Of a stretch of 60,976 nucleotides of DNA, positions 14,682 through 37,659 are shown piece by piece (position 1 is the first letter of the stretch; each line of letters opens with the position of its first letter). The notes beneath the pieces were generated by a model that was not told the DNA's origin, searched no databases, and worked only from the letters and a program-made list of their open reading frames with translations. The stretch lies in IMG/VR virus record IMGVR_UViG_3300042922_000323, positions 1 to 60,976 of that record; one strand, given 5' to 3'. Both the position numbers and the translations under genes were made by a program. The stretch is from a virus. Its lineage: Duplodnaviria; Heunggongvirae; Uroviricota; Caudoviricetes.

Positions 14682-14714
14682 CTTATTGTCCTCCTCATTA
14701 CTCGTCTACTCTAT

Positions 14715-14724
14715 TAGAATAGAC
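14715..14724 (-). promoter_or_regulatory. candidate late promoter motif GTCTATTCTA
   Basis: 34 nt before holin start; identical 10-mer before starts at 49243 and 53604. Confidence 0.5.
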
Positions 14725-14758
14725 TAAAATGAGGAGAGCACTATGTACTCCCGTCATT

Positions 14759-15571
14759 TTATACATCTGTGTACTTATCAATTAATTTAGCTATCTTCTT
14801 AATAATTCGGCTTACCCTCATTTGTGAGATGTTGTATTCCCTGGCGGTCTGTGTCTGTGAATTACCTTCCATCTGAGAGTTTAGTACATTAACCTCAGTG
14901 TCGGTCAACTTAGCCCTTATAGAATCTATTATTGAATCTACATACACCTTATCAACCACATCTATTTCAACATTTTCATCAGCGTGTAATAAATCCATAA
15001 GACAGGTGTCTGGTACATATCGCTGTTTCTCAACTAGTGGGTATGTTACCTTCCCCTCTAATGACTTTACAGGTTGTCCAATCTGTAGCACCTTTGTAAT
15101 CTTTTCTTCCTTCTCGTCAAGCAGCATTGCTAAATCTTCAACAGAAGGCATATATCCGAAATCGTTCTCGACTTTTCTAATATCCATTAGAAGTGAGTGA
15201 GCCGTTCTTGTAAGTCGAATTATATTCGCTGTGTCCCTCAGAAAACATCTAATTTCTCTCACAATAGCAGTAACTGCAAAGGAAGAGAACTTTATACCTC
15301 TTGTAGTATCGAAGGCTTTAATTGCCTTTATATAACCCATACGTCCCAGTTGTAATATATCTTCTTTTTCAAGACCGTTGTTGTCAGCTATTGTTTCGGG
15401 TTTTCCAATGTACTTATGAACGGAGTGCCAAATCAAATTCTCGTTAACTAATAGAACATCGCCCAAATAAGCGGGGTCTTCTTTACAGCGTTCAATGTTA
15501 TCCATTCGGTACATAGAGTAGTAGGTTTTGTCTTTACTGAGGTTTTCCTTTATGTGTTTTGGGAAATCCAT
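14759..15571 (-). CDS. SigB/F/G-like RNA polymerase sigma factor
   Basis: NENLIW..., EDILQLG.MG.IKA...FD..RG.KFSSFA...I..EIR.FLRD, SQM.VSRI. Confidence 0.92.
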   Translation of the reverse strand: MDFPKHIKENLSKDKTYYSMYRMDNIERCKEDPAYLGDVLLVNENLIWHSVHKYIGKPETIADNNGLEKEDILQLGRMGYIKAIKAFDTTRGIKFSSFAVTAIVREIRCFLRDTANIIRLTRTAHSLLMDIRKVENDFGYMPSVEDLAMLLDEKEEKITKVLQIGQPVKSLEGKVTYPLVEKQRYVPDTCLMDLLHADENVEIDVVDKVYVDSIIDSIRAKLTDTEVNVLNSQMEGNSQTQTAREYNISQMRVSRIIKKIAKLIDKYTDV

Positions 15572-15615
15572 TTTAACCCCTCCATATGAGGAGAGCGGGG
15601 TTTAACCCGCCCTCG

Positions 15616-15717
15616 TTAGAAAATAAGCTTTATCAAGTACTCTACAGCATCTGCAAGCATATACCCAAGGAATATGCACAATCCCATCACAACAGGTTCT
15701 TTTACCTCTTTTTTCAT
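15616..15717 (-). CDS. 33-aa hydrophobic peptide (not in ORF track)
   Basis: MKKEVKEPVVMGLCIFLGYMLADAVEYLIKLIF; RBS GAGG. Confidence 0.5.
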   Translation of the reverse strand: MKKEVKEPVVMGLCIFLGYMLADAVEYLIKLIF

Positions 15718-15723
15718 ACACTA

Positions 15724-16011
15724 TTACCTCTTTCCCTGTATTCTATCCTTCAAAGGCTTAGTCATTCTTGCAACTACTGTAGTAACTGCGGGAATGGTCA
15801 TAGGCTCTTTTGTTATTGGGTTCTTACCATCTTTAGCATCACGGTGTTTCACGAAGAAGTTAAAGAAGTTATTAACCTTCACATCATCACCTGCTACTAA
15901 GTAGCCTGTAATCAATCCAAGTATATCTTCTAATCTCTTCTCGGCTTCAACCTTGGTAATACCTTCTTGTACAGCATAGTCAGCAATAATCTCGTTCTTA
16001 AATTTTGTCAT
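15724..16011 (-). CDS. HU/IHF-family DNA-binding protein
   Basis: MTK.., G.F..K.R.A..GKNP.T.E.MTIPA. Confidence 0.92.
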   Translation of the reverse strand: MTKFKNEIIADYAVQEGITKVEAEKRLEDILGLITGYLVAGDDVKVNNFFNFFVKHRDAKDGKNPITKEPMTIPAVTTVVARMTKPLKDRIQGKR

Positions 16012-16035
16012 GTAAAATATCCTCCAAATAAGTAT

Positions 16036-16689
16036 TTATACTAATTCTCTGCTCATGTTACCGTTAGTGTCATACACTGTCTTAAAAAAGCCAAGGCTAA
16101 CCAAATCAAACACTTCTTCATGAACAGCATCAGGGTCTCTATTAGCGTCAACAACATAAATTAGTTCATCATCTTTATCTATCCTGCGGTATATATCAGC
16201 AAGCACGTTATACGCCATCCTTGCTCTATTAAGTAAGTCTGTGTCTAACTCATGCATATCATCACGCACAGCTTTACGTTTCATTGACGTTTCGGCTGAA
16301 ATATCAAGAACCACAGTCATATCAGGTTTTCTAATCTTATCTTGAAGACCTTTAACCCACTCAACATCTATCCCTTTCGCCATACAATATGCATGGTTTG
16401 AGAGTGTATATCTATCACAAACCAAAAAGTCTATCCCACATTGTTCCAGAACTTCTATATCTTTTTGGTAGTCTTGAACATCAACCTGCATCAGCATGTG
16501 TAATGCTTCTTTTGAAAGGTTAACATCACCCTTTAATACTGACTTTATCCACTGTCCTGTAGACCTGTTATATCTTGGGAAAGCCACCATCGCTACTTTG
16601 TAACCTCTAATAGCTAATGCTTGTGTGAGCATTGTGACTTGGGTCTCTTTACCCGAAGCATCAATACCTTCAAATGCAATTATCCTCAC
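16036..16689 (-). CDS. tmk: thymidylate (dTMP) kinase
   Basis: IAFEGIDASGKETQ, CDRY..S..AY, KPD. Confidence 0.93.
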   Translation of the reverse strand: MRIIAFEGIDASGKETQVTMLTQALAIRGYKVAMVAFPRYNRSTGQWIKSVLKGDVNLSKEALHMLMQVDVQDYQKDIEVLEQCGIDFLVCDRYTLSNHAYCMAKGIDVEWVKGLQDKIRKPDMTVVLDISAETSMKRKAVRDDMHELDTDLLNRARMAYNVLADIYRRIDKDDELIYVVDANRDPDAVHEEVFDLVSLGFFKTVYDTNGNMSRELV

Positions 16690-16868
16690 ACTGTCGCCCC
16701 CTCTAAAGGAACGCCAACTTCTTCAAAGCCCACTAAGTCATATCCTTTGAAGTGCTGAGTAGCCACAGCTATAGCAGTACCTTCATCTTTAGCCTGTACA
16801 ACTACTTTTCTTTCACCAGTGTTTTTATACTTCGACAAGTCCTTTAAAGTAATCTCAAACTTCCTCAT
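16686..16868 (-). CDS. hypothetical protein
   Basis: 60 aa, coupled. Confidence 0.55.
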   Translation of the reverse strand: MRKFEITLKDLSKYKNTGERKVVVQAKDEGTAIAVATQHFKGYDLVGFEEVGVPLEGATV

Positions 16869-17088
16869 TAAAATCTACCCCCTCGGTATCTAAAATCCAA
16901 TTACCATCACTTCCGTATGGTTTTGGTTCTGTCATTGCTTTGAATACTGTGCTACCATCTGAATCCCTAACAGGAGTCATTTCTGGTGGGTCGAACATAC
17001 GAAATAGTTCGCCCACCTTAATTTCATTCATATGAGCATCGACCCATTTACCATCACGGTAAATTTCAAGCTTTCTAAAAATCGCCAT
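16855..17088 (-). CDS. hypothetical protein
   Basis: MAIFRKLEI..., RBS GGGGG. Confidence 0.6.
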   Translation of the reverse strand: MAIFRKLEIYRDGKWVDAHMNEIKVGELFRMFDPPEMTPVRDSDGSTVFKAMTEPKPYGSDGNWILDTEGVDFNEEV

Positions 17089-17092
17089 ATAA

Positions 17093-17374
17093 TTACCCCC
17101 TAACAGGAATGAACTCATTAAGTTTTGTCAGAAGTGCTCCGTTCTGTTCTACGGCGGACTGAGCCTTGTTCTTGGTCTGCTTTGCTTTTGCAATGCTTTC
17201 CATGTACTTGTTAATCTTGCTATCGCTATCAGCAATAGCCTTTGACAGTTCTGCGTTGGCAAGTTCAACATCTTTTGCCGCTTTAGCAAACACGTTCATA
17301 GTTCTGTAGACCTTTTTCTCAGCCTTTGCTATCCTTGCTTCTGCATCTTTTACGTCATCAAATAATTTAGACAT
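17093..17374 (-). CDS. coiled-coil hypothetical protein
   Basis: Ala/Lys heptads, RBS AGGGGG. Confidence 0.65.
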   Translation of the reverse strand: MSKLFDDVKDAEARIAKAEKKVYRTMNVFAKAAKDVELANAELSKAIADSDSKINKYMESIAKAKQTKNKAQSAVEQNGALLTKLNEFIPVRG

Positions 17375-17424
17375 ATTAAATTCCCCCTAATCTTTCTGTA
17401 GGATATTACCTACTCACATCATTT

Positions 17425-17586
17425 TTAATCTATTTCGACGGGCATTGGAATCCCTAATAACCCGCTAATAACATTAACCCCGTCATAGGTTATCTCGACC
17501 CTACAATGAGGATCAAAATTAACTATTAACCAATCCTGTAAAGGCTTTGCAAGTTCCTCTAACTCGTTGAAACGTTTAGTATCCAT
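17425..17586 (-). CDS. 53-aa hypothetical protein (not in ORF track)
   Basis: MDTKRFNELEELAKPLQDWL...; RBS GGAG. Confidence 0.55.
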   Translation of the reverse strand: MDTKRFNELEELAKPLQDWLIVNFDPHCRVEITYDGVNVISGLLGIPMPVEID

Positions 17587-17587
17587 G

Positions 17588-17767
17588 TTACTCCATCTCC
17601 TCAACTTCTACACATTTACCAACATCACCAAAAGGCACGACTTTTCTAGCTGTAAATACACATGAACCATCATTTGCAGTAATAACATTACCGTCACTGT
17701 CTACGATTCTGAACTTAGCACCTTTTACTACTTCACTACCATTCAAAACTTCTATAAAAAATTTCAC
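17588..17767 (-). CDS. 59-aa hypothetical protein (not in ORF track)
   Basis: MKFFIEVLNGSEVVKGAKFRIVDSDG...; RBS GAGGTG. Confidence 0.55.
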   Translation of the reverse strand: MKFFIEVLNGSEVVKGAKFRIVDSDGNVITANDGSCVFTARKVVPFGDVGKCVEVEEME

Positions 17768-18226
17768 TTATTTCACCTCGGTTGCATTGTCATAGGAAGT
17801 TCCAAATCCTCCCCTGTCTTCATTTCCAAGTTCGTCTTTTTCTACCAAACCCAACGCTAAAAGTGGGACGAATACTGCCTGACACAGCTTGTCCCCAGGC
17901 TTAATAGTAATGGGCTGTTTTGTTTCATTCTTGAACTCTGCTTGCCACTCGTCACCATCACCACAGTAAAGACAATCTATAACTCCTACACCGTTAGTAA
18001 GTTTAATGCCCCACTTCTTGTATGTAGAAGACCTTTGAAACACAAGCCCCACGCCATATACAGGAATTTCTGTTGCTACATTGAGTGCTATTCTTGCGAC
18101 TTCCCCAGGGTATAGCTGAAAAGGTTTCTCCAATCTTGCGAATAAATCGAACCCTGCGTTTCGTTCATCATCTTTAGACAGTGCGGGTATGTTCTTGTCA
18201 AATCTTCTATAGTTCATATCAACCAT
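17768..18226 (-). CDS. dut: trimeric dUTPase
   Basis: AGFDL, RSS, NGVGVIDCLY.G, QAVF, RGGFGTS. Confidence 0.93.
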   Translation of the reverse strand: MVDMNYRRFDKNIPALSKDDERNAGFDLFARLEKPFQLYPGEVARIALNVATEIPVYGVGLVFQRSSTYKKWGIKLTNGVGVIDCLYCGDGDEWQAEFKNETKQPITIKPGDKLCQAVFVPLLALGLVEKDELGNEDRGGFGTSYDNATEVK

Positions 18227-18663
18227 TAGAAATCCCTCCCAGGAAGTATAATCTTCTTTTCTTTTTTCTCAGGTAGTATAATATCGCTAGTAACCTGTGC
18301 GGCAGTAAATTCTGCTACCAGAGCGGCAAATTCATCCTCAGTAAGCTCTTTAATTTCAAGGTCACTACAAGATAGTGTGTATGCCATTCCATCTGTCAGT
18401 AACATTTGGAACTGTACATTTGCCACATCAAGTACCTTATCTCCAATGTAGTCATAAGCTAACACTGCTTTTTGGTATCCCGCCACAACCCCTGCGAACC
18501 ACACATTGTGCTCATTTCCTTCCCTGTCTACTAACTTATTAGTTGTAGCATGAATTGTTTTTCCTACCAGACCTAACAAGACTTCCTCCGCTATCGGATA
18601 AACCTCGTCCTTGCTATTCCATACTGAACCATCCAATTCTTTAACAGTTTTCATTTTATTCAT
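18226..18663 (-). CDS. hypothetical protein
   Basis: 145 aa. Confidence 0.65.
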   Translation of the reverse strand: MNKMKTVKELDGSVWNSKDEVYPIAEEVLLGLVGKTIHATTNKLVDREGNEHNVWFAGVVAGYQKAVLAYDYIGDKVLDVANVQFQMLLTDGMAYTLSCSDLEIKELTEDEFAALVAEFTAAQVTSDIILPEKKEKKIILPGRDF

Positions 18664-19136
18664 CCTTTCGTTTTTGTTTTATTAGCTCTTACAGTGTACT
18701 TATACGTTGAGGTCTTACCAGAGTTAAATGAACTTTTAACTTTTTCTAAAACATTTAATGTTGCATCGTAATCACTCATGTCTGAGTTCGGGTGGTTATT
18801 TAAGTAGTAGTTCTTGTAAGCGGTTACCACGATATTGTTATTAATATCAACTACTACACAAGTTACTCTATCCCTAAATGGAACTCTACCTCTCAGAAGT
18901 ACTCTACTTTCTTCGCCATTAATTAAATGGTACTCGATAATATTCCCATCATTAATGGTCTGATTAACTTCCTCGACAGTTATCCTTCTCTCTTTCATTC
19001 TTTGAAGACTGTGTTGTGTCACTTGGAATTTACCTCGAATCAACATCTTCAAGACATTCTTTTCCTCGGCAGTCATCTGAGTATGGTGCTTTCTTATTCC
19101 CCTAACTTCATCTATTGCCTTTAGCACTTCCGCCAT
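18660..19136 (-). CDS. DUF4258-like (RelE/BrnT-fold) putative RNase
   Basis: TQHSLQRM.ER.I....V...I..G.IIE...RVLLRG...VVV...VVTAY; start moved to 19136. Confidence 0.75.
   Translation of the reverse strand: MAEVLKAIDEVRGIRKHHTQMTAEEKNVLKMLIRGKFQVTQHSLQRMKERRITVEEVNQTINDGNIIEYHLINGEESRVLLRGRVPFRDRVTCVVVDINNNIVVTAYKNYYLNNHPNSDMSDYDATLNVLEKVKSSFNSGKTSTYKYTVRANKTKTKG
18698..18727 (-). promoter_or_regulatory. phage-specific (middle) promoter motif
   Basis: TTAACT-N15-CGTATAAGT, inside the 3' end of the DUF4258 gene. Confidence 0.75.
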
Positions 19137-19157
19137 GCTATCACCTCTTTTCGTAAT

Positions 19158-19187
19158 ACTTGTACGTGGAGGTGTATTCTCAGTTAA
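19158..19187 (-). promoter_or_regulatory. middle promoter motif variant
   Basis: TTAACT-N15-CGTACAAGT. Confidence 0.7.
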
Positions 19188-19188
19188 A

Positions 19189-19217
19189 TAAAAAAGGCAA
19201 CTTTTTTCAAAGTTGCC
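19189..19217 (-). terminator. terminator after nrdD
   Basis: GGCAACTT-loop-AAGTTGCC then T-run on minus strand. Confidence 0.7.
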
Positions 19218-19229
19218 CAAACTTGCTTA

Positions 19230-21137
19230 TTATTCAACTATCTTGAACTTCCTTCGTGGGTATTCGTAGTTCTTACGTACATCACCCCAACTAGAAATCT
19301 TAGTAAAATATCCTATAATTCTCGTGAGCCAGTCCTCAATCTTACCACCACATATCGGACATGTTGTACCATTACCGACTACGCATGTATGACCATGCTC
19401 ACAAGTTCCAAATCCATAGTTAATGGCAAAGTGTGGAACGCCCGCCTTTAGGGTCATTCTAATAAGCTTCTCCATCACTTCTTCATTTTTAATTTGGTCT
19501 TGAACATTCAAGTGAACAATACCACCACCTGAAACAATGTTCATGAATCTACCTGACAGCTTCACTCTTTCAACAGGACTAACATCAGCTATTACAGGGA
19601 GGTACTGGTTACTATAGAGTTTAAACGGCTGTTCCTTACCATACTTCATGCGGTCTTTGTTAGCAAAAATAACGGCTGTAGACTCCCCAGGAATCTCCTC
19701 AGTATTAAAGCTATAACCACATTCTTTTGTGAACTGTAACGCCATTTTCTCAGTAAACAGCAATACATCTTCTACAAGTTCTGCTCCATCATCTTCTGTA
19801 ATTTCTGTTCCCATGAAATGACACATTTCATAAAGACCATTAATTCCAATAGTGGAGAACAGCATCTTCATATCGAACCAGTGTAATGGTTTAAAAAATT
19901 TCAAGAATCCTGCGTTAACTCTTCTTTGGAGAATTTCTTCTCTATGTACAATCAGAAGGTCTCTACACAATTCAAGTCTCTCTTTAAGTAAATCCCAAAA
20001 CTCTGTCATGTTGTTAGAATCTAAAGCGAGTCGAGCATAATTTATAGTGACAATTCTATGTGAGCCAATATTAAGTCCGCCATTACCGAATGAGTCTGCT
20101 CTGTAGCCCATACGTTCCATGTCATTAATGAAACGGCAACACATAGCAATCTTATTGCCCTCATTAGCGTATATATTATAAACACCTTTGGTAATATTCG
20201 TCTTTGCTACAAACTTCAAAAAGTCTTCATCAAGCGGGTTTCTATTCTCGTCAACTGACATATTAGTTGTCATGACAGGAAATCTATAAGGTAAATTAGT
20301 CGAAGGGTCTCCATTACTAAAGAAACCTGCTACTAACTTCTGAACCTTCATTGTGTACTCAGTATCTACCTGTGTTCCATCAGGAAAATAGGTATGTTCA
20401 AAAATCTTACTTATATTTGCCCTGTCAAATACAGAAATATTGGTGAATGGTGACTGACCTGACACTCTAAATTTGTTATTCATAACGTGAACAAATTTCT
20501 GCCACTGGTTAATAATATAATCAGCACCTTCCTCACTATCAGGGTCTATTCCTTCTTTCTTCAAGTAATAACAAAGGTTTACAAGGAAGTCAGACGGTGC
20601 TACTGCTCCTACAAATTCCTGCGACAAGTCCATAGTAGTTTCTATAACTTGTGCCACAAAACTATCTGAGCGTTTAGGTGGGGCACTGTGTAATTGTCCA
20701 TATGGTCTACCTTCAAGCATAATAGGAGTAGTGCTGTAGGCAAAACAATAAGGCACTTGTATACCGTGACCCGAAGCATCATGGAAATAGAGTATTCCAT
20801 CCCATATTGCTTTCATTGCTCTATTGGCTCTTGCTAATCCAAATCTTTTCTTTGTGTACTTCCATAAGAGGTAGTACCCTTCTAATTTGAGTAATCCCTT
20901 CGTAACTTCTGCTTGGTAATTATTAGCACTCAATTCCTCGTTAGCATTTGCGTTCATATCTACGCTTGTGTCTGCCAATCGTTGAGTGAAATACTTATGG
21001 CTCATTGCCCCCACATCTATCTTCTCGGGGCTAATACCCTCTAACTCCAACAATTTAAGTCCATTAGGGTCGCTCGAATAGTTTGTGTAAAGTTCATCAA
21101 AACCTTTTTCAAAAGTGACATTATACTGCATAATCAA
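19230..21137 (-). CDS. nrdD: anaerobic (class III) ribonucleoside-triphosphate reductase
   Basis: YFHD, MCCR finger loop, C-terminal C..GH...CPICG and RIIGY glycyl-radical loop. Confidence 0.95.
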   Translation of the reverse strand: MIMQYNVTFEKGFDELYTNYSSDPNGLKLLELEGISPEKIDVGAMSHKYFTQRLADTSVDMNANANEELSANNYQAEVTKGLLKLEGYYLLWKYTKKRFGLARANRAMKAIWDGILYFHDASGHGIQVPYCFAYSTTPIMLEGRPYGQLHSAPPKRSDSFVAQVIETTMDLSQEFVGAVAPSDFLVNLCYYLKKEGIDPDSEEGADYIINQWQKFVHVMNNKFRVSGQSPFTNISVFDRANISKIFEHTYFPDGTQVDTEYTMKVQKLVAGFFSNGDPSTNLPYRFPVMTTNMSVDENRNPLDEDFLKFVAKTNITKGVYNIYANEGNKIAMCCRFINDMERMGYRADSFGNGGLNIGSHRIVTINYARLALDSNNMTEFWDLLKERLELCRDLLIVHREEILQRRVNAGFLKFFKPLHWFDMKMLFSTIGINGLYEMCHFMGTEITEDDGAELVEDVLLFTEKMALQFTKECGYSFNTEEIPGESTAVIFANKDRMKYGKEQPFKLYSNQYLPVIADVSPVERVKLSGRFMNIVSGGGIVHLNVQDQIKNEEVMEKLIRMTLKAGVPHFAINYGFGTCEHGHTCVVGNGTTCPICGGKIEDWLTRIIGYFTKISSWGDVRKNYEYPRRKFKIVE

Positions 21138-21601
21138 ATCCTCCTATTGTCTATAACTACTTGGTTGGAACTAGCGGGGAAACCACCTGTCTTTAATTCG
21201 TCTATATACGCTCCTGCTACGACCACAGTGCATAAATTCTTTATCTCTGAAGGAATCTTATCCTCTGCGTAGCCTGTATACAGCCATACGCCAAGTCCTA
21301 ACTTCTTTACCTCGTTAACCAACATGAGTAAAGGAAGTATTGGTTGGTCTAAAGGTTCACCGCCGAGAAGTACTACATTGTCGTACCAGTCTCTGGACTC
21401 CGCAATCTTGTCAATTAAATCCTTCGGGTTGTAAAGTTCTCCACCTTCAAAGGATTGTAACTCTGGATTATGACACCCTTTACAGTGAATACTACAGCCT
21501 TGAAAGTATATAGCGAAACCTACCCCATCAGAATCAATAGTGGATAGCTCGTTAAAGCCACCCACTCTTAATCTGCACTCTATATAACCTGTATAATCCA
21601 T
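21134..21601 (-). CDS. nrdG: class III RNR activase (radical SAM)
   Basis: FQGCSIHCKGCHN, LGGEPL, WLYTGY, SSNQ. Confidence 0.95.
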   Translation of the reverse strand: MDYTGYIECRLRVGGFNELSTIDSDGVGFAIYFQGCSIHCKGCHNPELQSFEGGELYNPKDLIDKIAESRDWYDNVVLLGGEPLDQPILPLLMLVNEVKKLGLGVWLYTGYAEDKIPSEIKNLCTVVVAGAYIDELKTGGFPASSNQVVIDNRRI

Positions 21602-21602
21602 A

Positions 21603-21989
21603 CTACAACCCCCTATAGTTAGCCCTTATGTGGTCTAACGCTTCCACAAAGGAGTCAAATCTATTTAGAACGACATCTGTAAGAAACTGGTTTCCATCCA
21701 CTTTTCCCACCCCGAAAATTGGGGTACTAATAGTATAGGCAATCTGAATAAAAAGAGCTTCTTCAACACTCAATTCATCCTTATGTAAACCTGTATTAAC
21801 TAAGATAGCATCAGCATTTTTGGCTATCCTTTTTATGGCAAAAATTATTTCTCGAAGTTCAATGTCTTTTGGTAATCTATCAAGAAATAACACTGTTTCA
21901 ACATCATCATCAAATTCATAAAATGGTTCAAACCCTATACAAATGAGCCTTAATTTAGCCATTATTTTCAACCTTCTTTCTGAGTTCAA
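21603..21989 (-). CDS. hypothetical protein
   Basis: 128 aa; start uncertain. Confidence 0.6.
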   Translation of the reverse strand: MNSERRLKIMAKLRLICIGFEPFYEFDDDVETVLFLDRLPKDIELREIIFAIKRIAKNADAILVNTGLHKDELSVEEALFIQIAYTISTPIFGVGKVDGNQFLTDVVLNRFDSFVEALDHIRANYRGL

Positions 21990-22323
21990 TTAATTCTCCG
22001 ACCATTGCTAAGAAGTCTCTTTCTTCTAGTGAATAGTAGTTTTTTCCATCACAGAATGAGTAAACAAGTATCCCTATCTTATTAGTTTCCAAGGCTTCTT
22101 CAAGAATTTTGTCATGCCACTCTTTATGTACTGTCATTGTTTTTGAAGGCTTCACTTTAGTCTTTGCTTCTACTCTGAACATCTGTGATACCACATCGGA
22201 CTTGGCATACCACATAGCCCCCGAAGCTATTTGGCGTTTAGCGGCATCACCGATGTCACTCAAACTCTTTGTAATTCGTTTCTCTTGCAGTTTAGAGACC
22301 CTTTGGTTAATCGTGGACATCAA
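21955..22323 (-). CDS. PD-(D/E)xK nuclease, Holliday-junction resolvase-like
   Basis: ASGA...KSDV...VEAKT..K..K.W..KI..EA. Confidence 0.7.
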   Translation of the reverse strand: MMSTINQRVSKLQEKRITKSLSDIGDAAKRQIASGAMWYAKSDVVSQMFRVEAKTKVKPSKTMTVHKEWHDKILEEALETNKIGILVYSFCDGKNYYSLEERDFLAMVGELIELRKKVENNG

Positions 22324-22495
22324 TATCTACCTCCTTTGCAACTAACTCACTCACTCTATTTTCTACTGCTCTCTCAACTGCTATCTCTATAGCCTTGCTA
22401 TAGGTTTTGTGTATCTTGTATTTCACATATGAGTGGTAAGAAATAGCAAGCGAGATAACCACGCTTGCTATAACCACACTATTCCCCCCGGTCAT
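22307..22495 (-). CDS. small membrane protein
   Basis: N-terminal hydrophobic helix. Confidence 0.55.
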   Translation of the reverse strand: MTGGNSVVIASVVISLAISYHSYVKYKIHKTYSKAIEIAVERAVENRVSELVAKEVDIDVHD

Positions 22496-22499
22496 ATAA

Positions 22500-23651: not shown

Positions 23652-23815
23652 TTACCATTCTCCCTTGTACACGTTATTTTAACCTTATAAAATCCGTGCT
23701 TATCCTTGGTCACGCTAACCGAGTTTCCGCACCCATCAGATGCGGATAGAGTGGCTAACTCTTCGGCTTTCATGAAATCGCCCATCTTGTCTGCAAGTGC
23801 TTCAAACTTATCCAT
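23648..23815 (-). CDS. 55-aa hypothetical protein (not in ORF track)
   Basis: MDKFEALADKMGDF...; TAATG and ATGA coupling on both sides. Confidence 0.6.
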   Translation of the reverse strand: MDKFEALADKMGDFMKAEELATLSASDGCGNSVSVTKDKHGFYKVKITCTRENGK

Positions 23816-24953: not shown

Positions 24954-25519
24954 TATCCATTCACCACCTTATTACGAAGTTCATAATATCTGTAAATAAA
25001 TGCATTACCAACTTCAATATGGTCTTCTACTTCGACTACTTTTTCTCGTGTTATCGGTTCGTACTCAATCCAACAGTGTTCTCTTGTTAAAGTGAGTGCT
25101 TCTGCATATAATGCATCTTTGTCACACCCTTTTACAACTGCCCATTCAAGTTCTGTAGGAAGTTTACCTAACAAAGCCTTGTATACAGTATCTTGTAATT
25201 TAGACTCCATTTTTTGGTATTCAGGTAACATCAATTTAACAGGTGTTGGAATATCACATATGTAAGCTTCCGACCCGTCATGTAGCAGACCTATCAAACA
25301 AATAGATGGTGAATACCCTTTGTGCTCTAACTCCTTACTCACAAATAACGAGTGCTGTGCCACACTATAAAAGTTTTTTGTATGCCCATTAAATCTACAT
25401 ATGTTAGAAAGTGCTTGTGCTACGTCTATAAGGAGAACTTCATCTTCCCGAGGGTCTAGTGGGTAGAAATGAATACCTGAGAATGTGACAACCCAATTAC
25501 CCTCCCTTTGTTCAACCAT
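24953..25519 (-). CDS. HD-domain 5'-deoxynucleotidase (YfbR-like)
   Basis: ALSNICRFNGH..FYSVAQHS, LLHDGSEAYICDIPTPVK. Confidence 0.9.
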   Translation of the reverse strand: MVEQREGNWVVTFSGIHFYPLDPREDEVLLIDVAQALSNICRFNGHTKNFYSVAQHSLFVSKELEHKGYSPSICLIGLLHDGSEAYICDIPTPVKLMLPEYQKMESKLQDTVYKALLGKLPTELEWAVVKGCDKDALYAEALTLTREHCWIEYEPITREKVVEVEDHIEVGNAFIYRYYELRNKVVNG

Positions 25520-27612: not shown

Positions 27613-27642
27613 ACTTATACGCAACCGTGTATCCCCAGTTAA
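27613..27642 (-). promoter_or_regulatory. phage-specific (middle) promoter motif
   Basis: TTAACT-N15-CGTATAAGT. Confidence 0.8.
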
Positions 27643-30787: not shown

Positions 30788-30804
30788 AATACCACCCCCA
30801 TGAA

Positions 30805-30834
30805 ACTTATACGTTTCAACCTGTTATGAGTTAA
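30805..30834 (-). promoter_or_regulatory. phage-specific (middle) promoter motif
   Basis: TTAACT-N15-CGTATAAGT. Confidence 0.8.
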
Positions 30835-30865
30835 AAAGTCCCCCAAGTATCACAAGGGGGACTTT
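30835..30865 (-). terminator. terminator after ssb
   Basis: AAAGTCCCCC-loop-GGGGGACTTT. Confidence 0.8.
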
Positions 30866-30886
30866 AGGTGTACTGCTAATTAAAGC

Positions 30887-31432
30887 TTAGAACGGTGGCT
30901 CGTCATCTTCGTTATTACTAGTTCCACCAGTAATTCCTGAGTTCATAAGAGCCAAAATAGACTCTTTAGTTGAAGGTGTTACCATTGCTTCAATATCAGG
31001 AAGTTCAACTTCTTCAAAGTCAAATGCTTCAATATCTCTAGCAAAGAACTCATATGTAGTATCGAGTTTCTCACCACTACGAACAATTTTGAAATCTCTC
31101 TTTGTTACATCACCATACTCTTCAACCTGAGTAAGTAGTCTCTTAAAGGTCTTCTTAGAAGCCTTAAAAATCTTGACCTTTCCATCTGCTCTATCGAGCA
31201 CTGGAATGTATGCTTTAAATGAAGGGTACTTACCTGCTGCACATATAGGGCAGTTGTTTTTACCTGGGCAACATACTGTCTTCCAATTTCCTGCGAACTG
31301 TTCCGTGTGTTCATAAGCCGCCATCACTTCATCAATGGGCACAAGTATTCTTACCACAACACTTTTGTTGTTCTCCAATTTCAGAAAGTTTGCACTGTTT
31401 TTAAGTGCTTCGGTCATTGCGTTAAAAGCCAT
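30887..31432 (-). CDS. phage single-stranded DNA-binding protein (gp32-like)
   Basis: FLKL..VRIL, C.CPIC, acidic aromatic tail DDEPPF. Confidence 0.8.
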   Translation of the reverse strand: MAFNAMTEALKNSANFLKLENNKSVVVRILVPIDEVMAAYEHTEQFAGNWKTVCCPGKNNCPICAAGKYPSFKAYIPVLDRADGKVKIFKASKKTFKRLLTQVEEYGDVTKRDFKIVRSGEKLDTTYEFFARDIEAFDFEEVELPDIEAMVTPSTKESILALMNSGITGGTSNNEDDEPPF

Positions 31433-31489
31433 AGTCTCATTCTCCTTTTAATTTGTTATTCGTATTTGGGTTATCTTCCCTTACAAAGT

Positions 31490-31598
31490 ACTTATACGTG
31501 CAAACCAGTCCCCAGTTAAATGCTTTTTAAAATGTTTTTCGACAAATTCTGCACAGTATTTTCATAGTACTTATACGCAACAAAAAAGCCAGAGTTAA
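31490..31598 (-). promoter_or_regulatory. tandem middle promoters with a Spo0A box between
   Basis: Motif at 31490-31519 and 31569-31598; TGTCGAA (minus) at 31538-31544. Confidence 0.75.
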
Positions 31599-31626
31599 GT
31601 GCACTCTGGCTTGTTATATGTAAAAT

Positions 31627-32199
31627 TTAAGCGTCTTCATATTTCTTAATAACACCTTTCCATAACTGACTAATGCGAGCCTTGGTTAGTCCAAGCATTG
31701 TAGCTATTTCGGTAAACTCATACCCCGCACAACGGAGTTTGAATATCTGTTTCTCCCTGTCATTGAGACCAATGTTCTCCATAAAATCTATCTCATACTC
31801 AGAACAACCATAATCTCCGTCAACGCTTTTTAATACAGCATTGCTTTTATGGGTACTGCCACTATCATTACTAATATCTTCGGGAGATTCAACTAGCTCA
31901 ACAGCTAAACAAAGTGGCATGTTGGTCTTTGCTTTCCTAAGACAATCCCTTATTCTATTATTAATAACATTCTCAAAGAATGTACTGGCTTTAGCCCTTG
32001 AACTGTCATATGCATCTACTGCTCTATATACAGAGAGTAGTACTTCTTGAACTACGTCTTCCTTTTCCATACCTACGAAGTCTGTAGCATGTATTTTAAC
32101 CTCGCACATTTCCTTTGCTTTAGTTAAAAATTTGTCCATATCACCGACTGCAAGTAATTCATCATAACCCATCGACACAGTATAACTCACAAAATACAC
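31627..32199 (-). CDS. ECF/SigH-like RNA polymerase sigma factor
   Basis: EDVVQEV.L..Y.A...YD....STF...I.NRI.D.LR; L.DREK.IF.L...GY...EIA.MLG. Confidence 0.85.
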   Translation of the reverse strand: MYFVSYTVSMGYDELLAVGDMDKFLTKAKEMCEVKIHATDFVGMEKEDVVQEVLLSVYRAVDAYDSSRAKASTFFENVINNRIRDCLRKAKTNMPLCLAVELVESPEDISNDSGSTHKSNAVLKSVDGDYGCSEYEIDFMENIGLNDREKQIFKLRCAGYEFTEIATMLGLTKARISQLWKGVIKKYEDA

Positions 32200-32209
32200 T
32201 CTCCTTTAA

Positions 32210-33277
32210 TTATTTAATATTATATAAAAATTCCTTATTAAGCTCACTTCTATATTCTTCAAATGTTATCTTTTCAACTTGTTTTAGTAAGCCCGCTTTT
32301 AATAAGTCATTTGCATCTTTGAACTGGATTTCTTCCTCGTCCAGTGTGTCAATACCATACCTGGCACATGGATACTTAATTACATTCACCCTTATTGGAG
32401 AATGTGTAGTAATCATGTTGTATGCTTGTAGGTTTGCTCTAACACCCCAGTAATCATTATCTAGGAACAGGTTAACAGTCTTTATATCTGCTTTCATAAG
32501 TTCTTGTACTTGCTCTTTAAATACTATCCTTCCAAGGATAGCCCCCGCAGGTATTCCTCCTTGGTAGCAAGCCATTGTGTCTGTTTCTGACTCATTTAAT
32601 GCAATCTCGGTAATATGTATGTTTGCCTGTTTAATATAGTATAGACCGTATACTATATCTTTCTTATCAAGGTTCTTCTCATTTAAAAAACCTTTTCTAC
32701 CGACAAACCTTCTTTTAACAAATCTTATTCTGCCATCAGAGGTTCTTATAGGAATTACCATAGATTGAGTTTGTTCATCAAACCCTATCTCGTACTTATC
32801 AAGTACCCTATCCTTAAATCCTCTGCTGTACATATAAGGGTGTCTCTTTCCTATATATTGTGCTATTTCTTCTTCTAAGTGGGAGCACCTTCTATCTTGA
32901 CTCTTCTTATCCAGTATAGCTTCAAGGTCAAGCTTGGGTCTCTGCTCTGCTGATAAAACTACGAAGTTTTTAAGGAGGAATTGCTCTCCCACAACTTCAT
33001 TTTTAAACCCACAGCAATGGGCTACTAATTGGGGCAAATTTCCAGTTTTTCCACAACTGAAACATTGGAATGTGTAAGGATAACTTGTCAGTATTCCAAA
33101 AGAAGGAGTACTCTCTTCTTCATAAGGACAACAACACATTAAGTTATCTCCGCTTGCTTTTACTTTGGTAAGAGCCGTTGTATTGCATTTGGCTTGACCA
33201 GACTCTTCATAATAAAGTCTTAACTCTTGTATTACTTCATCGATGTCTAAATATATTGTTGATAATATTGTGCCCAT
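32210..33277 (-). CDS. dnaG: DNA primase (CHC2 Zn finger + TOPRIM)
   Basis: CCPY...PSF...CFSCG, ESETD, FLDND. Confidence 0.9.
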   Translation of the reverse strand: MGTILSTIYLDIDEVIQELRLYYEESGQAKCNTTALTKVKASGDNLMCCCPYEEESTPSFGILTSYPYTFQCFSCGKTGNLPQLVAHCCGFKNEVVGEQFLLKNFVVLSAEQRPKLDLEAILDKKSQDRRCSHLEEEIAQYIGKRHPYMYSRGFKDRVLDKYEIGFDEQTQSMVIPIRTSDGRIRFVKRRFVGRKGFLNEKNLDKKDIVYGLYYIKQANIHITEIALNESETDTMACYQGGIPAGAILGRIVFKEQVQELMKADIKTVNLFLDNDYWGVRANLQAYNMITTHSPIRVNVIKYPCARYGIDTLDEEEIQFKDANDLLKAGLLKQVEKITFEEYRSELNKEFLYNIK

Positions 33278-33298
33278 TTTTTTCCACCTCTCGCCATT

Positions 33299-33344
33299 AT
33301 ATTACAACTTTCGACAAATAGTGTCAACCCTTTTTCGACAAATT
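33299..33344 (-). promoter_or_regulatory. SigA-type promoter flanked by two Spo0A boxes
   Basis: TTGACA 33323-33328, TAATAAT -10 region ~33299-33305; ATTTGTCGAAA at 33310-33320 and 33334-33344. Confidence 0.75.
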
Positions 33345-33490
33345 ATGGAATATTTTTTCTAAAGATTGGAAATATAGGAATATGGGAAGCCCCAAACGCA
33401 GTGGGCTTCCCTGTAGACAAGTAATAAGAAATTTTTTTTATCTTTCTCACCTACTAGAATACCCTGCCGTAATAGGTAAACCAATGTCAG

Positions 33491-34051
33491 TTATTGGTTT
33501 ATCAAATAGCGGTAAGCATCTAGCTGTCTTTGGTATTCTTCTGTCTTATGAAACCCGCACGACTTATACTCAAAACAGTGACCCCTGTATATGCAGTCAG
33601 GTACACTTACGCTGTATAATTCGGGTTGTTCTTCCTTTATACTTTCAAGTACTTCCTTCCATGCTTCCCGTGTCTCAGGTGAAGCCAGAAAGCATAATCT
33701 CTTCCTTGAAATATTTATAAATGCCTGCGGGTTCGCTGCAAACTCATGTTCAACAGGAGCACCCTGTGGTATTACATCTCTATTCTCACCCGTTCGGTCA
33801 GTTCTCTGAGTTCGCACCCAATGGATAATACCAAGCCAGTGTCTGACAAAATGAACACTTACCCAATAAGGTATTTCATACCATTTACACTTTAAATTTA
33901 ACTGCCTTATAGGAGAATGTTCACATAATAACATTCTTCTTTTCCACTCAGAGGAAGGTTCACCTTCCCCTGCTTCTTTATGTATAGTAGTTCTGGCAGA
34001 ATCAGCAACGTCCCGCCATGTTCCATTCATACCAAGAAATTTAACCCGCAT
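33491..34051 (-). CDS. thyX: flavin-dependent thymidylate synthase
   Basis: EHSPIR, H..RH..., TQR.DR, SRKRLC, C.YRG.C.E. Confidence 0.88.
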   Translation of the reverse strand: MRVKFLGMNGTWRDVADSARTTIHKEAGEGEPSSEWKRRMLLCEHSPIRQLNLKCKWYEIPYWVSVHFVRHWLGIIHWVRTQRTDRTGENRDVIPQGAPVEHEFAANPQAFINISRKRLCFLASPETREAWKEVLESIKEEQPELYSVSVPDCIYRGHCFEYKSCGFHKTEEYQRQLDAYRYLINQ

Positions 34052-34229
34052 TTACTTTAGCCCCCTTGTTTAAGAAGCTAAAAGCAATCATTTTCTTCCA
34101 TGACCCAACACCGTGCTGTTCAGTAACATACTTCTTAGCAATGTACATCAAGTCCTTATTATCAATAGCTTCTAATAAGGTTGTAAAAACATCGTCCCTG
34201 TCAAATGCATAAGTAATCCTATAGGTCAT
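34041..34229 (-). CDS. hypothetical protein
   Basis: 62 aa. Confidence 0.5.
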   Translation of the reverse strand: MTYRITYAFDRDDVFTTLLEAIDNKDLMYIAKKYVTEQHGVGSWKKMIAFSFLNKGAKVNAG

Positions 34230-34573
34230 AATAAATTTCCTCCGCTTATATTAAGTATGTACCTTGACATGTATGCTACAGGCTTGTCTGTCTTTTCAGC
34301 ATAGGCAATCTCACGTTTAGTGCTTTCGCCAATATAACCATCCTTATCAATAACAAATATACCATCTGAAAGGTCAATCTTTCTAAGGTGTAATTCGTCA
34401 AGCATTTCTTTTACAGAATCATCAATAGTTACTCCGTATTCACCATCAGCGTGACCAAACAATCCCACGCTAATAATTATGTGCCCCATCAATGTAAGCA
34501 ATTTCTGCCACTGCATAAACTCTTCTTTAAACTTAGTAGAACCACACAAGGTAACAACCTTTGGCTTATCCAT
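34226..34573 (-). CDS. Rossmann-like protein, nucleoside deoxyribosyltransferase-like (DUF4406-type)
   Basis: TLCGS.KF, H.RKIDLSD.IFVI...GYIGEST.REI.YA. Confidence 0.6.
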   Translation of the reverse strand: MDKPKVVTLCGSTKFKEEFMQWQKLLTLMGHIIISVGLFGHADGEYGVTIDDSVKEMLDELHLRKIDLSDGIFVIDKDGYIGESTKREIAYAEKTDKPVAYMSRYILNISGGNLL

Positions 34574-34585
34574 TATATTTCCCCC

Positions 34586-35839
34586 TTAAAATACCAGTGT
34601 CTCAGGGAAATTTTCTTCCCATACACCTGTGTCTAAATTAGCTTTCATAAATATATCTTGGTCTTTCTTTCCGCCCCTGTTCTTCTTTAGAGACATCTTG
34701 AAAGTGTCAGTAAGTAATCTCAGAGTCAGTACCCTTGTAGCTTTCTGAGCAGGGTTGTCAGACTCTTGTATATCAAACAGTTCAGGAGTAGCATTTGGGT
34801 CTTTCTTAGCTTCCTTCGCCGCATTTCTTCCCGCCTGTGCTATGAGCATCATAGGTGTTTGTGTATAAAGGTTGGTATCTCTAACACCATTGGTAACCCT
34901 GACTATTCTCTTACGAATGTCACTTTCGCTCGTACCATCGGACAGGTCATACAACTGGTCAATCACTATGAAACCAGGTCTCTCAGACTCTATGACTGCT
35001 CTTATATCCAATGGAGTAAATGGCTTACCCCCATTAGCTTCCTGAGAAAGGATTAGGAAACTTGTGTCCTTCTTCTTTAGCTCATTTAGATATTCAAGAT
35101 ACAGCTCATGGTCTGGTAACTTACCATCATTCAGTGCTCTGTTGGAGAAATGTGCTCTCAGTGTGTCCAAACGGAACGATACTTCTAACTCGGGCATTTC
35201 TGTGGTTATGTATATAACAGGAGCATTTACATTTGCTATCTGTAAAGCTCTCCATGCGTGGTATGCAAAATACCCGCCCACCATAGATTTACCTTCATTA
35301 GTTCTAGCCGCTAACAGTACAAGGTCATCGTTTCTCCATCCACCTGTTAAATCATCAAGGGTTCGTATACCTGTAGGTAACCCCCACAGTCCTGTGTGCC
35401 CATGACGTTTCATGTACTCTGTGTATCTGTCATCTGCGTTCTTAACCCAGTCATACCTTGACGTTTTACCTGTGAAGTTCTTTAGCATACCATCAAGGTC
35501 AGTCTTCATTTTCATCATGGCTTCAATGGTCTTGCCATCTGAAACCAATCCTGCGTTCTCCGTGAGCAGTGGTCTATACTCCATGTACGCCTTTTGCTCT
35601 TTTAACACATTAACTAAGTAGCTTATAGGTTCAAGACTAGTTAATGGTTGGAAATCATCAAACTCTAACGCTACGGTGTTCGATGTTGGTAACTGCCCGT
35701 GCTGTTTATGGAATCTATCAATCCATTCATACTCGTCTTTAAGGACTATGAAGTATGAATTGTCAATCCCATTTTTCATAAGGAAGCCGTAATCTTGCGA
35801 ATTTAACCAATGGTTAAGTAATTGTAATTCCTCTATCAA
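34586..35839 (-). CDS. dnaB: replicative DnaB-like helicase
   Basis: LPTG..LD..TGG, AARTNEGKS, ITTEM, IDQL, QAGR, IQESD. Confidence 0.92.
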   Translation of the reverse strand: MIEELQLLNHWLNSQDYGFLMKNGIDNSYFIVLKDEYEWIDRFHKQHGQLPTSNTVALEFDDFQPLTSLEPISYLVNVLKEQKAYMEYRPLLTENAGLVSDGKTIEAMMKMKTDLDGMLKNFTGKTSRYDWVKNADDRYTEYMKRHGHTGLWGLPTGIRTLDDLTGGWRNDDLVLLAARTNEGKSMVGGYFAYHAWRALQIANVNAPVIYITTEMPELEVSFRLDTLRAHFSNRALNDGKLPDHELYLEYLNELKKKDTSFLILSQEANGGKPFTPLDIRAVIESERPGFIVIDQLYDLSDGTSESDIRKRIVRVTNGVRDTNLYTQTPMMLIAQAGRNAAKEAKKDPNATPELFDIQESDNPAQKATRVLTLRLLTDTFKMSLKKNRGGKKDQDIFMKANLDTGVWEENFPETLVF

Positions 35840-36555
35840 GTTCTCAACTCCTTACTCCGCCTGTCTGAGCCGTTCACTTCTATCACCATACCATTGCTTA
35901 GCAGACGAGATACGTTTCGTTTCCCTAGATTACCCCCATCTGCTAAATCCTTTAGGCTCAGATTGGACGTAGTCACGGTGGATAATACGTTATTGAACCT
36001 ATGGTTGAGTAATAAGAATGTCTGTTCTCTTGCAAAGTCTGACATTGTTCCCGCACCTAAATCATCAAGCATCAGGAGTGGAACATTCATTATATTGTTG
36101 AAACGCTCTTGTGTTCCTGTATCATCTTCCAAGTATCTTAAATCATCAATCAACCTGGCATAGTCTACATACATTGCTAGTGGGTGCTCAAAGTCAAACC
36201 TTGTTCCGCATGTTCTATAAATGTAGTGGTTTACAAATAAAGCCGCCGCATGTGTCTTTCCTGTTCCAGTATTACTGCCCTGAAAGAATACATTCAGCCC
36301 ACCATCAACTTCTTCAACTATGTTGTCTAGCAATGGCTTTATCTTTTCAAACACTTCCCTGTTCTTATCATCTACTTTGTAGTTGTAAAGGTTTGCTTGG
36401 AGATACCTTTTGGGTATCTCCGAAAACGCAAGAGCCTTATACATTCTAGCGTGCATACGGCAAAAGGAACTGTCTGTCTTCTCCACCTCGCCTTTGTATC
36501 GTGGACAAAATGCTTGTGCTAGGCACTTTGTACATTCCTCATAAGGTGCTGTCAT
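35836..36555 (-). CDS. DnaC/IstB-like AAA+ helicase loader
   Basis: G.NTGTGKT, LMLDDLG, HRFNN.LST..TSN. Confidence 0.88.
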   Translation of the reverse strand: MTAPYEECTKCLAQAFCPRYKGEVEKTDSSFCRMHARMYKALAFSEIPKRYLQANLYNYKVDDKNREVFEKIKPLLDNIVEEVDGGLNVFFQGSNTGTGKTHAAALFVNHYIYRTCGTRFDFEHPLAMYVDYARLIDDLRYLEDDTGTQERFNNIMNVPLLMLDDLGAGTMSDFAREQTFLLLNHRFNNVLSTVTTSNLSLKDLADGGNLGKRNVSRLLSNGMVIEVNGSDRRSKELRT

Positions 36556-37607
36556 TACAATCCCCTCTTTCTTAAAAAGTTCATTAAATCATCATCTTCA
36601 TCACTCTGTACTGGTTCATCAGGTTCTTCCCCTTTATCATCAAACCTAGTATAGAACTTACCAGTTGTCATGAAAGCTGTAATGGAGTTCTGAACATAAG
36701 TTCCGCAGAATCCACTAACGTAGTGTTTGGAGAACGCTTCGCCATGCTCAAAATAAATATCCATCATTGCTTTCAGTAACTCGTTGTTTCCCCTTTTCTC
36801 AATCGCTACACTAAGAGAACGTAAATCCCACCGTTCAGTGAAGTAAGGTGTTTTATACTTAGCTACATATAACTGCTCAAAGTACTTCATAAAATAATGA
36901 CAGTTCCATGTAAGCACAGGGTCATTCAAGTCAACCTTCTTTTTCTTCGGCTTGCTTACCTTATCTACATCTGCAACCTTATCAACTTCTTGACTCTTGC
37001 TTGGCTTAACATTTAGCTGTCGTCTTGGTGGTTCAGCAGGTAATGGTTCTTCTACTAGTTCCTCAGATTCCATCTGTTCACTACTTGCAAAATCCGAAAA
37101 CCATTGAGCTAATGTAGTCATGTAATGTTCGGGCTTAGTACAGCTATTTAAAGACTTGTACAAATCCGTTTTTTCATACTCAGCTACAGCCCTGTAAAAT
37201 TCATCCACTTGCTCTGTCCCTACAGGTTTAAGTGAATGAACCATTTCTGAATGTCTCAGCATTGGTATCCTATGTAATTCAATTAAGTGGTAAGTGTCTA
37301 CCGAATTTGCTGACCCCTTCTCAATGATTATGAAACCCTTATCCACAAGCTCCTTTAAATAGTTAAGCAACGTCTGCCTACTACATCGGAGTTTCCCCCT
37401 AAGAGTAGCCTGACTTGGGTGACACTCTTGTTTCTCCCAAGCATAAGCTTTTAAGCAGGTGTATAATTGCTTTGCCCCTAATGAAAGGAACATACAATCT
37501 GTTACCTTATTAGGAATCATTGAAAAGCCCTTATTTTCACCGTAATGCATCATAAAGCTTTCTTGTTGGTCACAAAGTTCAACCCTAAATTCCCCCAATA
37601 GCATCAC
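36555..37607 (-). CDS. replication initiator with N-terminal winged HTH
   Basis: LS.GAK.LY..L..YA...CHPSQATL...L.EL..KGFI; directly upstream of dnaC/dnaB. Confidence 0.75.
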   Translation of the reverse strand: MMLLGEFRVELCDQQESFMMHYGENKGFSMIPNKVTDCMFLSLGAKQLYTCLKAYAWEKQECHPSQATLRGKLRCSRQTLLNYLKELVDKGFIIIEKGSANSVDTYHLIELHRIPMLRHSEMVHSLKPVGTEQVDEFYRAVAEYEKTDLYKSLNSCTKPEHYMTTLAQWFSDFASSEQMESEELVEEPLPAEPPRRQLNVKPSKSQEVDKVADVDKVSKPKKKKVDLNDPVLTWNCHYFMKYFEQLYVAKYKTPYFTERWDLRSLSVAIEKRGNNELLKAMMDIYFEHGEAFSKHYVSGFCGTYVQNSITAFMTTGKFYTRFDDKGEEPDEPVQSDEDDDLMNFLRKRGL

Positions 37608-37629
37608 TCCCGTTTTACTTTTTCAAGAG

Positions 37630-37659
37630 ACTTATACGCACGGTCACGTACACAGTTAA
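37630..37659 (-). promoter_or_regulatory. phage-specific (middle) promoter motif
   Basis: TTAACT-N15-CGTATAAGT. Confidence 0.8.

Follow-up and report, generated by a model that had tools for sequence, protein, structure and literature searches.

The window analysed here spans positions 1 to 60,976 of a viral record rated complete by CheckV (IMG/VR record IMGVR_UViG_3300042922_000323; 124,976 nt). It belongs to a tailed phage and carries two sigma factor genes together with two recurrent promoter-like motifs, an arrangement that tentatively suggests three successive transcription classes run by two phage sigmas and gated by the host sporulation regulator Spo0A. Genes lie on the plus strand up to ~14.0 kb, on the minus strand between 13.96 and 85.0 kb, and beyond 85.2 kb on the plus strand once more. 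The minus-strand block holds terminase, portal, major head, tape measure and tail genes between 85 and 38.6 kb, replication and nucleotide-metabolism genes between 37.6 and 15.7 kb and, after 15.7 kb, a sigma gene, then a holin gene, then the gene of an SLH mini-protein. Only two genes of the sigma-70 family are present in the whole genome, one of a type resembling the extracytoplasmic function (ECF) sigmas and the other resembling SigB, SigF and SigG. The sigma genes and their surroundings are:

32210 to 33277, minus strand: DNA primase gene (CHC2 zinc finger and Toprim).
31627 to 32199, minus strand: ECF-like sigma gene, regions 2 and 4 only; likely start at the second GTG, 32190.
31586 to 31612, minus strand: intrinsic terminator after the ECF-like sigma gene, which includes the -35 of the next motif-1 promoter; relatives have the same layout.
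15591 to 15614, minus strand: GC-rich hairpin between an HU-like gene and the SigB/F/G-like sigma gene, ~20 nt before the latter.
14759 to 15571, minus strand: gene of the SigB/F/G-like group-3 sigma, 270 amino acids (aa).
14734 to 14752, minus strand: terminator hairpin after the SigB/F/G-like sigma gene (z = -5.0).

The ECF-like sigma (187-190 aa) shows only the Sigma70_r2 and Sigma70_r4 domains in Pfam, passes the generic ECF-type model TIGR02937 with 61.4 bits against a cut-off of 42.9 and has the sigma-H factor 3mzy as its best solved match. Its gene begins ~10-20 nt past the primase gene, and no anti-sigma gene is co-transcribed with it, the terminator standing directly 3' and the upstream partner being the primase gene. 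Among NCBIfam models the second sigma matches the SigB/F/G subfamily best (1e-32), and among solved structures it comes closest to 8x6g_H (an unnamed RNA polymerase sigma factor of 256 aa) and to the sigma factor in 1l0o; no gene for an anti-sigma factor of the SpoIIAB/RsbW type was noted in the phage. A close kinship with this subfamily is opposed by its score against TIGR02980 (113.3 bits, far under the cut-off of 234), by scores also far under the cut-offs of the SigF and SigG equivalog models, and by Pfam, where region 2 passes and regions 3 and 4 are detected below threshold. We thus consider "ECF-like" and "SigF/G-like" to be fair descriptions of these predicted proteins and not established family memberships.

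The nearest cultured phages are distant (DNA polymerase identity of at most 32%), and megablast of 20 kb against GenBank phages gave no match. Gene order agrees with that of the Jenstvirus group, whose members include two phages of spore formers, Jenst (on Brevibacillus) and EZ-2018a (on Bacillus). A tblastn search of phages with the ECF-like sigma gave no match at 1e-5, and a single-sequence scan of viral contigs gave none either; an alignment was needed to find relatives of this sigma among viral contigs. Eight relatives were used for comparison: a 113-kb prophage in assembly GCA_000374385.1 (G001), a 40-kb fragment (G002), a 124.7-kb record (G003) and five partial loci (L120, L124, L127, L128 and L129). 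The first three carry both sigmas, at 40-59% identity, and both motifs described below; in the five partial loci the ECF-like sigma is accompanied by motif 1. No record identical to the G002 sigma turned up in an exact look-up.

Motif 1, TTTAACT-N15-CGTATAAGT, contains the AAC-N16-CGT signature of ECF promoters. Searching the window for TTAACT-N15-CGTATAAGT with one mismatch allowed gave nine copies where 0.02 were expected, and the 125-kb genome holds 12; with a position weight matrix, no score in the genome fell between 34 and the 14-bit cut-off. All 12 copies are directed at the next gene on the same strand, and 11 of them, those with a called gene start, lie 47-166 nt upstream of it. The copies in the window are:

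37630 to 37659, minus strand: motif-1 promoter of the DnaD-like/DnaC-like/DnaB operon.
31569 to 31598, minus strand: distal motif-1 promoter of ssb.
31490 to 31519, minus strand: proximal motif-1 promoter of ssb.
30805 to 30834, minus strand: motif-1 promoter of the DNA polymerase I gene.
27613 to 27642, minus strand: motif-1 promoter of the long operon at 27.6-19.2 kb (recombinase, ribonucleotide reductase and others).
19158 to 19187, minus strand: motif-1 variant CGTACAAGT, past a terminator.
18698 to 18727, minus strand: motif-1 promoter of the dUTPase, thymidylate kinase, HU-like and sigma operon.
4001 to 4030, plus strand: motif-1 promoter in the plus-strand block.
7339 to 7368, plus strand: motif-1 promoter in the plus-strand block, before a Gam-like gene.

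The sequence-only reading had placed an ECF-type motif before the replication operons, including the operon that starts at 18727 and ends in the SigF/G-like gene, and the motif was located exactly there. Motif 1 is absent from the structural block (38.6-85 kb), and outside 14.7-37.7 kb it also precedes an Xis-Int pair, so that excision and integration genes appear, as judged from their promoter, to belong to the regulon of the ECF-like sigma. Beyond the window, at 85132-87098 of the same genome (G000), a small gene, an excisionase-type (HTH_17) gene and a tyrosine integrase gene stand in this order behind a motif-1 promoter.

By the published rule, ECF promoters have AAC in the -35 and CGT in the -10, and CGTA is a sigW-type -10 (PMC5758882). 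The AAC-N16-CGTA of motif 1 agrees with both at its 12 sites, and the same agreement could be taken to mean that motif 1 is read by a host sigW-type ECF sigma induced by envelope stress during infection. We consider this very unlikely: the -35 is TTTAACT or CTAAACT and not TGAAAC, and the motif itself varies between phages, since the three related genomes and the five partial loci retain the AAC-N16-CGTATA core but have lineage-specific tails (AAGT, AGAG or AGGT after CGTATA). Moreover, the promoter directly before the ECF sigma operon is motif 1 in G001, G003 and L120 and motif-1-like in L124, L128 and L129, so that in six relatives the motif precedes the operon of the phage's own sigma. Such a promoter would represent typical ECF self-regulation and is the best link that we have between sigma and motif. 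Jenst also argues against a host sigma, as it has a very different sigma-24 after its primase and a motif that differs in sequence but follows the same plan, GCAACT ... ACCATAGATAGTGTAAGG. Matches to AAC-N16-CGTAT in Jenst and EZ-2018a are chance matches only, both phages using other motifs. Taken together, it is quite probable that the ECF-like sigma reads motif 1, although the window's own genome lacks a motif-1 promoter directly before the ECF sigma operon, which speaks against this assignment.

Two further elements lie close to these promoters. TGTAAG follows CGTATA at 7 nt in many, not all, copies of the window's phage (e.g. window 31481-31489), G001 and G003, and stands at equal distance in the otherwise different motif of Jenst; it probably represents the region of the start site. 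Five of the relatives have, upstream of the sigma operon, a conserved element of ~190 nt, absent from the window, in which a SigA-type promoter (TTGACA-17-TATACT) is combined with a structured RNA and a strong terminator (L124:3480-3720, L128:3450-3690, L129:3460-3700, L120:2410-2620 and G001 90210-90410). It could be a small RNA or a leader regulating the sigma; an Rfam scan of the loci of three relatives for a conserved leader RNA gave no match.

The SigB/F/G-like gene stands at the end of the operon that starts at 18727, as the sequence-only reading had it, with the correction that a conserved GC hairpin (15591-15614) separates it from the rest of that operon. No promoter-like site besides motif 1 was found between 18727 and the sigma gene. 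The swapped assignment, in which the two sigmas exchange motifs, was rejected: it could not start, because the second sigma gene has no upstream promoter except motif 1. The equivalent of this hairpin in G001 and G003 is a strong true terminator with a U-tail, a point that tells against expression of the second sigma from this operon. The second sigma would therefore probably be made by read-through, which would add delay, and the hairpin could thus serve to time the late sigma. In the relatives in which its position was examined, this sigma lies at the middle-to-late boundary, and in the window it stands directly before the first late promoter. In the host flank of G001 (L109:4124-5860), a large serine recombinase gene comes directly after the SigF/G-like sigma gene at the prophage end, and past it come three or more tandem copies of a ~65-nt repeat unit and then an open reading frame with a Pfam match to Spore_YtfJ. 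Like the spore-forming hosts of the cultured relatives, this last match speaks for a spore former as host.

Motif 2, gtCTAWWCTA, lies upstream of late genes, and its CTAWWCTA part is kept there in all four genomes (the window's genome and G001-G003). By raw count the 8-mer is not enriched, but ten of its 27 genome copies fall in the 1.4% of strand positions located 10-100 nt upstream of late genes (P=2e-12). The form CTATTCTA occurs five times at these upstream positions and beats all other 419 composition-matched permutations (mean 0.06). No intergenic motif 2 was found in the replication block (15-38 kb); across the genome, motif 1 goes with replication genes and motif 2 with structural and lysis genes, with no overlap. 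The sites in the window are:

14715 to 14722, minus strand: first motif-2 site, CTATTCTA, upstream of the holin gene (14154-14681); it lies 37 nt past the SigB/F/G-like sigma gene, beyond its stop codon and terminator hairpin.
40807 to 40814, minus strand: motif-2 site upstream of a distal tail gene of 700 aa.
49274 to 49281, minus strand: motif-2 site past a terminator.
51281 to 51288, minus strand: motif-2 site CTATACTA.
53642 to 53649, minus strand: motif-2 site.
59645 to 59652, minus strand: motif-2 site inside the 3'-terminal part of the preceding gene; a virion structural gene follows.

Over 27 sites in four genomes, C-TA..CTA is invariant, and the -35 signal is weak, with G at -22 in 20 of the 27, corresponding to a spacing of 17-18 nt. 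The invariant TA and CT would agree with the use of positions -12/-11 and -7 by group 1-3 sigmas. SigG promoters have a CATnnTA -10 and a GnATA -35 at a spacing of 17-18 nt. The claim that a second motif precedes lysis and structural genes from the sigma gene onward held. Its presumed likeness to a SigF/G -10 is not specific, as measured on this consensus motif 2 would resemble a SigG -10 about as well as a SigA -10 (TATACT), and no better, which counts against a forespore-type reader. An alternative follows along the same line: motif 2 might be read by host SigA polymerase with a phage activator (as at phi29 A3) or by an unrecognised factor, the SigB/F/G-like sigma being auxiliary and acting on host forespore genes to alter dormancy. 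The TAWWCT within motif 2 matches TATAAT at four to five of six positions, the late-like motif of the distant cultured relative Jenst (sigma ~27% identical), cCTTATAATg, contains a perfect TATAAT and so opposes a dedicated late sigma, and SigF/G-like phage sigmas in B. subtilis activated sporulation genes and lowered spore yield (PMC9429907). The C before TA and the CTA end, however, depart from the SigA consensus at every one of the 27 sites, the position of the sigma gene at the class boundary in relatives speaks against an auxiliary role, and the genome holds no other candidate late regulator with sigma homology. We accordingly judge the SigA alternative unlikely, and find it reasonably probable that the second sigma reads motif 2.

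A hairpin at 72775-72832 of the window's genome (G000; L111:12770-12832) is a terminator lying before the tape-measure gene, with CTAWWCTA in its loop. It recurs in all four genomes, with compensatory changes in four stem pairs.

One or both motifs could in principle be signals of RNA processing or stability and not promoters. Motif 2 often lies just past a terminator and once within a terminator loop, and TGTAAG is conserved past motif 1. Yet motif 1 is bipartite with a non-conserved spacer fixed at 15 nt, as is typical of sigma promoters but not of sites in RNA, and the late and middle operons have no alternative candidate promoter, which makes an RNA-level role for one or both motifs most improbable.

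The promoter before the primase and ECF-like sigma genes is of SigA type, and 0A boxes lie at it and between the tandem ssb promoters:

33299 to 33327, minus strand: tier-1 SigA-type promoter TTGACA-17-TAATAT before the primase and ECF-like sigma genes.
33334 to 33340, minus strand: 0A box 1, TGTCGAA within ATTTGTCGAAA, ending 6 nt upstream of the -35.
33310 to 33316, minus strand: 0A box 2, TGTCGAA within ATTTGTCGAAA, in the spacer between -35 and -10.
31538 to 31544, minus strand: 0A box 3, core TGTCGAA, between the two tandem ssb promoters.

This promoter (-35 TTGACA at 33327-33322, -10 TAATAT at 33304-33299, 17-nt spacer) is among about six near-consensus intergenic SigA-like promoters of the genome. 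A SigA promoter with 0A boxes ahead of these two genes had been proposed before, and it was found with two perfect, extended boxes. The third box is the third genome copy of TTTGTCGAAA, at 31546; over 124,976 bp TGTCGAA occurs eight times and TTTGTCGAAA three times, so that three of the eight TGTCGAA copies sit at the tier-1 and ssb promoters, and TTGTCGAAA occurs three times in the window against 0.35 expected. Three bp past box 2, an imperfect box (TGTAATA) overlaps the -10, and the pair has the dimer geometry of phi29 and Nf (compared with PMC2731898). Since boxes lie upstream of the -35 and in the spacer, with a partner over the -10, the likeliest effect of Spo0A~P would be to occlude the promoter; whether Spo0A represses it is in our estimation an evenly balanced question.

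Several observations weigh against a Spo0A gate. The three boxes have 11 nt in common (ATTTGTCGAAA), exceeding the 7-bp 0A core, as a phage operator might; no match to the parS sequence TGTTNCACGTGAAACA with up to two mismatches was found in 125 kb; and the phage looks temperate, so that keeping the promoter silent in growing lysogens would take more than Spo0A. Among relatives, 0A boxes occupy the homologous promoter only in the window and in G003; G001 has no perfect 0A box there, and seven relatives have a LexA box in its place, perfect in six and with one mismatch in the other. The 11 shared nt would suit a different explanation, in which ATTTGTCGAAA is an operator bound by a phage-encoded repressor or some other host factor, the cascade being real but gated by lysogeny control and not by sporulation. 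With Xis-Int behind a motif-1 promoter and an Xer-like recombinase, the phage is probably temperate, and a temperate phage must silence its master promoter during growth; the LexA boxes of relatives are repressor sites at exactly the same position. The core, however, is a perfect published 0A box, and its 3-bp spacing to the imperfect partner is that of phi29 and Nf. Furthermore, the primase gene of G003 is preceded by a TTGACA-18-TATATT promoter, and the two TGTCGAA boxes immediately upstream of this promoter share with the window boxes only the 7-bp core and differ in flanks and orientation, which a host factor explains better than a co-evolving phage repressor, and no 0A boxes were found at the other SigA-like promoters of the window's genome. 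Control by such operators seems unlikely to us, though it is a rival to be taken seriously beside repression by Spo0A.

The LexA (Cheo) boxes of the relatives are embedded in the SigA-like promoter before the ECF-like sigma gene or the primase-sigma operon. Perfect copies of CGAAC-N4-GTTCG lie at L120:2761, L124:3770, L127:2268, L128:3738, L129:3747 and G002 40251, the one-mismatch copy at G001 90574, and one such promoter contains TTGCGAAC...GTTCG. G003 has a perfect LexA box one gene further upstream, at 24998, and the window's genome has no perfect LexA box. The distribution of the two box types, LexA in most relatives and 0A in the window and G003, makes the first-sigma promoter look like a swappable entry point for a host signal, by analogy with the SigN circuit of pBS32, and the sporulation gate would then be only partly general. 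A stronger form of this idea is doubtful but may be stated: LexA or Spo0A boxes would serve as a swappable sensor at one hub among temperate relatives, the window phage being Spo0A-only, a sporulation regulator would license the lytic programme including xis-int, and the final, forespore-type sigma and its promoters may cross-talk with the host SigF and SigG regulons in either direction.

From the arrangement of genes and motifs, a mechanism in three steps can be proposed. Host SigA polymerase would fire the consensus promoter and produce primase and the small ECF-like sigma, unless Spo0A~P stops the programme in cells already in sporulation. The ECF-like sigma would then read motif 1 at its 12 promoters, turning on replication, nucleotide metabolism and xis-int and, by read-through of the conserved hairpin, the SigB/F/G-like sigma. 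In the last step, this second sigma would read motif 2 at at least ten late promoters, of head, tail and lysis genes. The order from ECF sigma through motif 1 and SigF/G-like sigma to motif 2 is supported by gene order, and an early-middle-late wiring would be the only self-consistent one. The sequence observations of the sequence-only reading were all confirmed, while its interpretation is partly supported: the whole model, a Spo0A-gated three-class programme run by two phage sigmas, is in our opinion possible, at slightly less than an even chance. The phage DNA was present only in soil metagenome runs among the sequencing runs on record, and no run recorded as RNA contains it, which does not help the model. 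A scan of bacterial genome contigs with the DNA polymerase alignment found only unrelated PolA genes of Proteobacteria and Cyanobacteria.

Three other features of the genome were noted. The Xer-like recombinase gene has a near-perfect SigA-type promoter, TTGACA-18-TATAAT (window 37683-37712, plus strand), back to back with the motif-1 promoter of the replication operon (37630-37659, minus strand). At window 1645-1875, plus strand, a 76-aa protein with an AbrB/MazE-type domain (PF04014) is encoded. The third feature is outside the window, in the interval separating the terminase gene from a small open reading frame (G000 82564-82677), where the inverted repeat GTTCTA-N5-TAGAAC occurs three times in tandem and looks like an operator array.

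If the wiring is true, the phage would be a compact, fully sequence-defined case of a large temperate phage of spore formers tying its lytic programme to host cell fate, with one host-read promoter leading to the ECF-like sigma, this to replication, excision and the second sigma, and the latter to virion and lysis genes. The occurrence of LexA boxes in most lineages and of Spo0A boxes in two, at the same hub, suggests that operator swaps at a single promoter may change the host signal that triggers or blocks the programme. The system also supplies two candidate orthogonal sigma-promoter pairs and sets a testable alternative beside the view that the main purpose of SigF/G-like phage sigmas is to manipulate host dormancy.

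In its parts the system would be a variant that combines known kinds, namely the SPO1 cascade, the SigN circuit and the Spo0A control of phi29. The SPO1 cascade leads from host sigA to gp28 and from this to gp33/34. This phage resembles SPO1 (PMC13401047) by its sequence layout, in which three promoter classes can be told apart, a host promoter precedes the first sigma gene, the late sigma gene belongs to the middle class and the middle and late consensus sequences are distinct, and it has an HU-like gene where SPO1 has TF1. It differs from SPO1 in the types of its sigmas (ECF-like and SigB/F/G-like), in being probably temperate and in having host-regulator sites at tier 1.

The SigN (ZpdN) circuit of pBS32 in Bacillus subtilis, in which the SOS/LexA input was shown experimentally, likewise has a weakly ECF-like sigma on a prophage-like element (PMC6751061). 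Judged by sequence, it shares with this phage a strong SigA promoter with a host repressor site, a bipartite consensus with a T-rich -35 and an ATA-rich -10, and a regulon of replication and nucleotide-metabolism genes; an auto-activating promoter before the sigma would be shared with relatives of the phage, and the LexA site is found in seven of them. The window's genome differs from pBS32 in having 0A boxes and no LexA box, and its phage, a full tailed phage, adds a SigB/F/G-type sigma and a late promoter class. Homology to SigN was not detected, tblastn of the ECF-like sigma against 72,556 plasmids (E<=0.01) giving no Bacillus match.

Spo0A represses the early promoters of phi29 and Nf, where, as here, a perfect TGTCGAA lies at or overlaps the core SigA early promoter with an imperfect partner 3 bp away (PMC2731898), and the expected outcome would be the same, a lytic programme blocked in sporulating cells. 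Unlike this phage, phi29 has no sigma of its own, and its boxes lie at several promoters and replication origins, with five parS sites, against two promoters and no parS here. Finally, SigF/G-like sigmas are known from the Bacillus phages Eldridge (g168/g169), SP10 (g120) and Goe3 (g157) (PMC9429907). These are phages of spore formers with a SigB/F/G-type sigma, as the phage described here appears to be, at an identity of 27-30%; their sigmas were studied for effects on host sporulation genes, whereas here the position of the gene and the late motif suggest a role in the phage's own late transcription.

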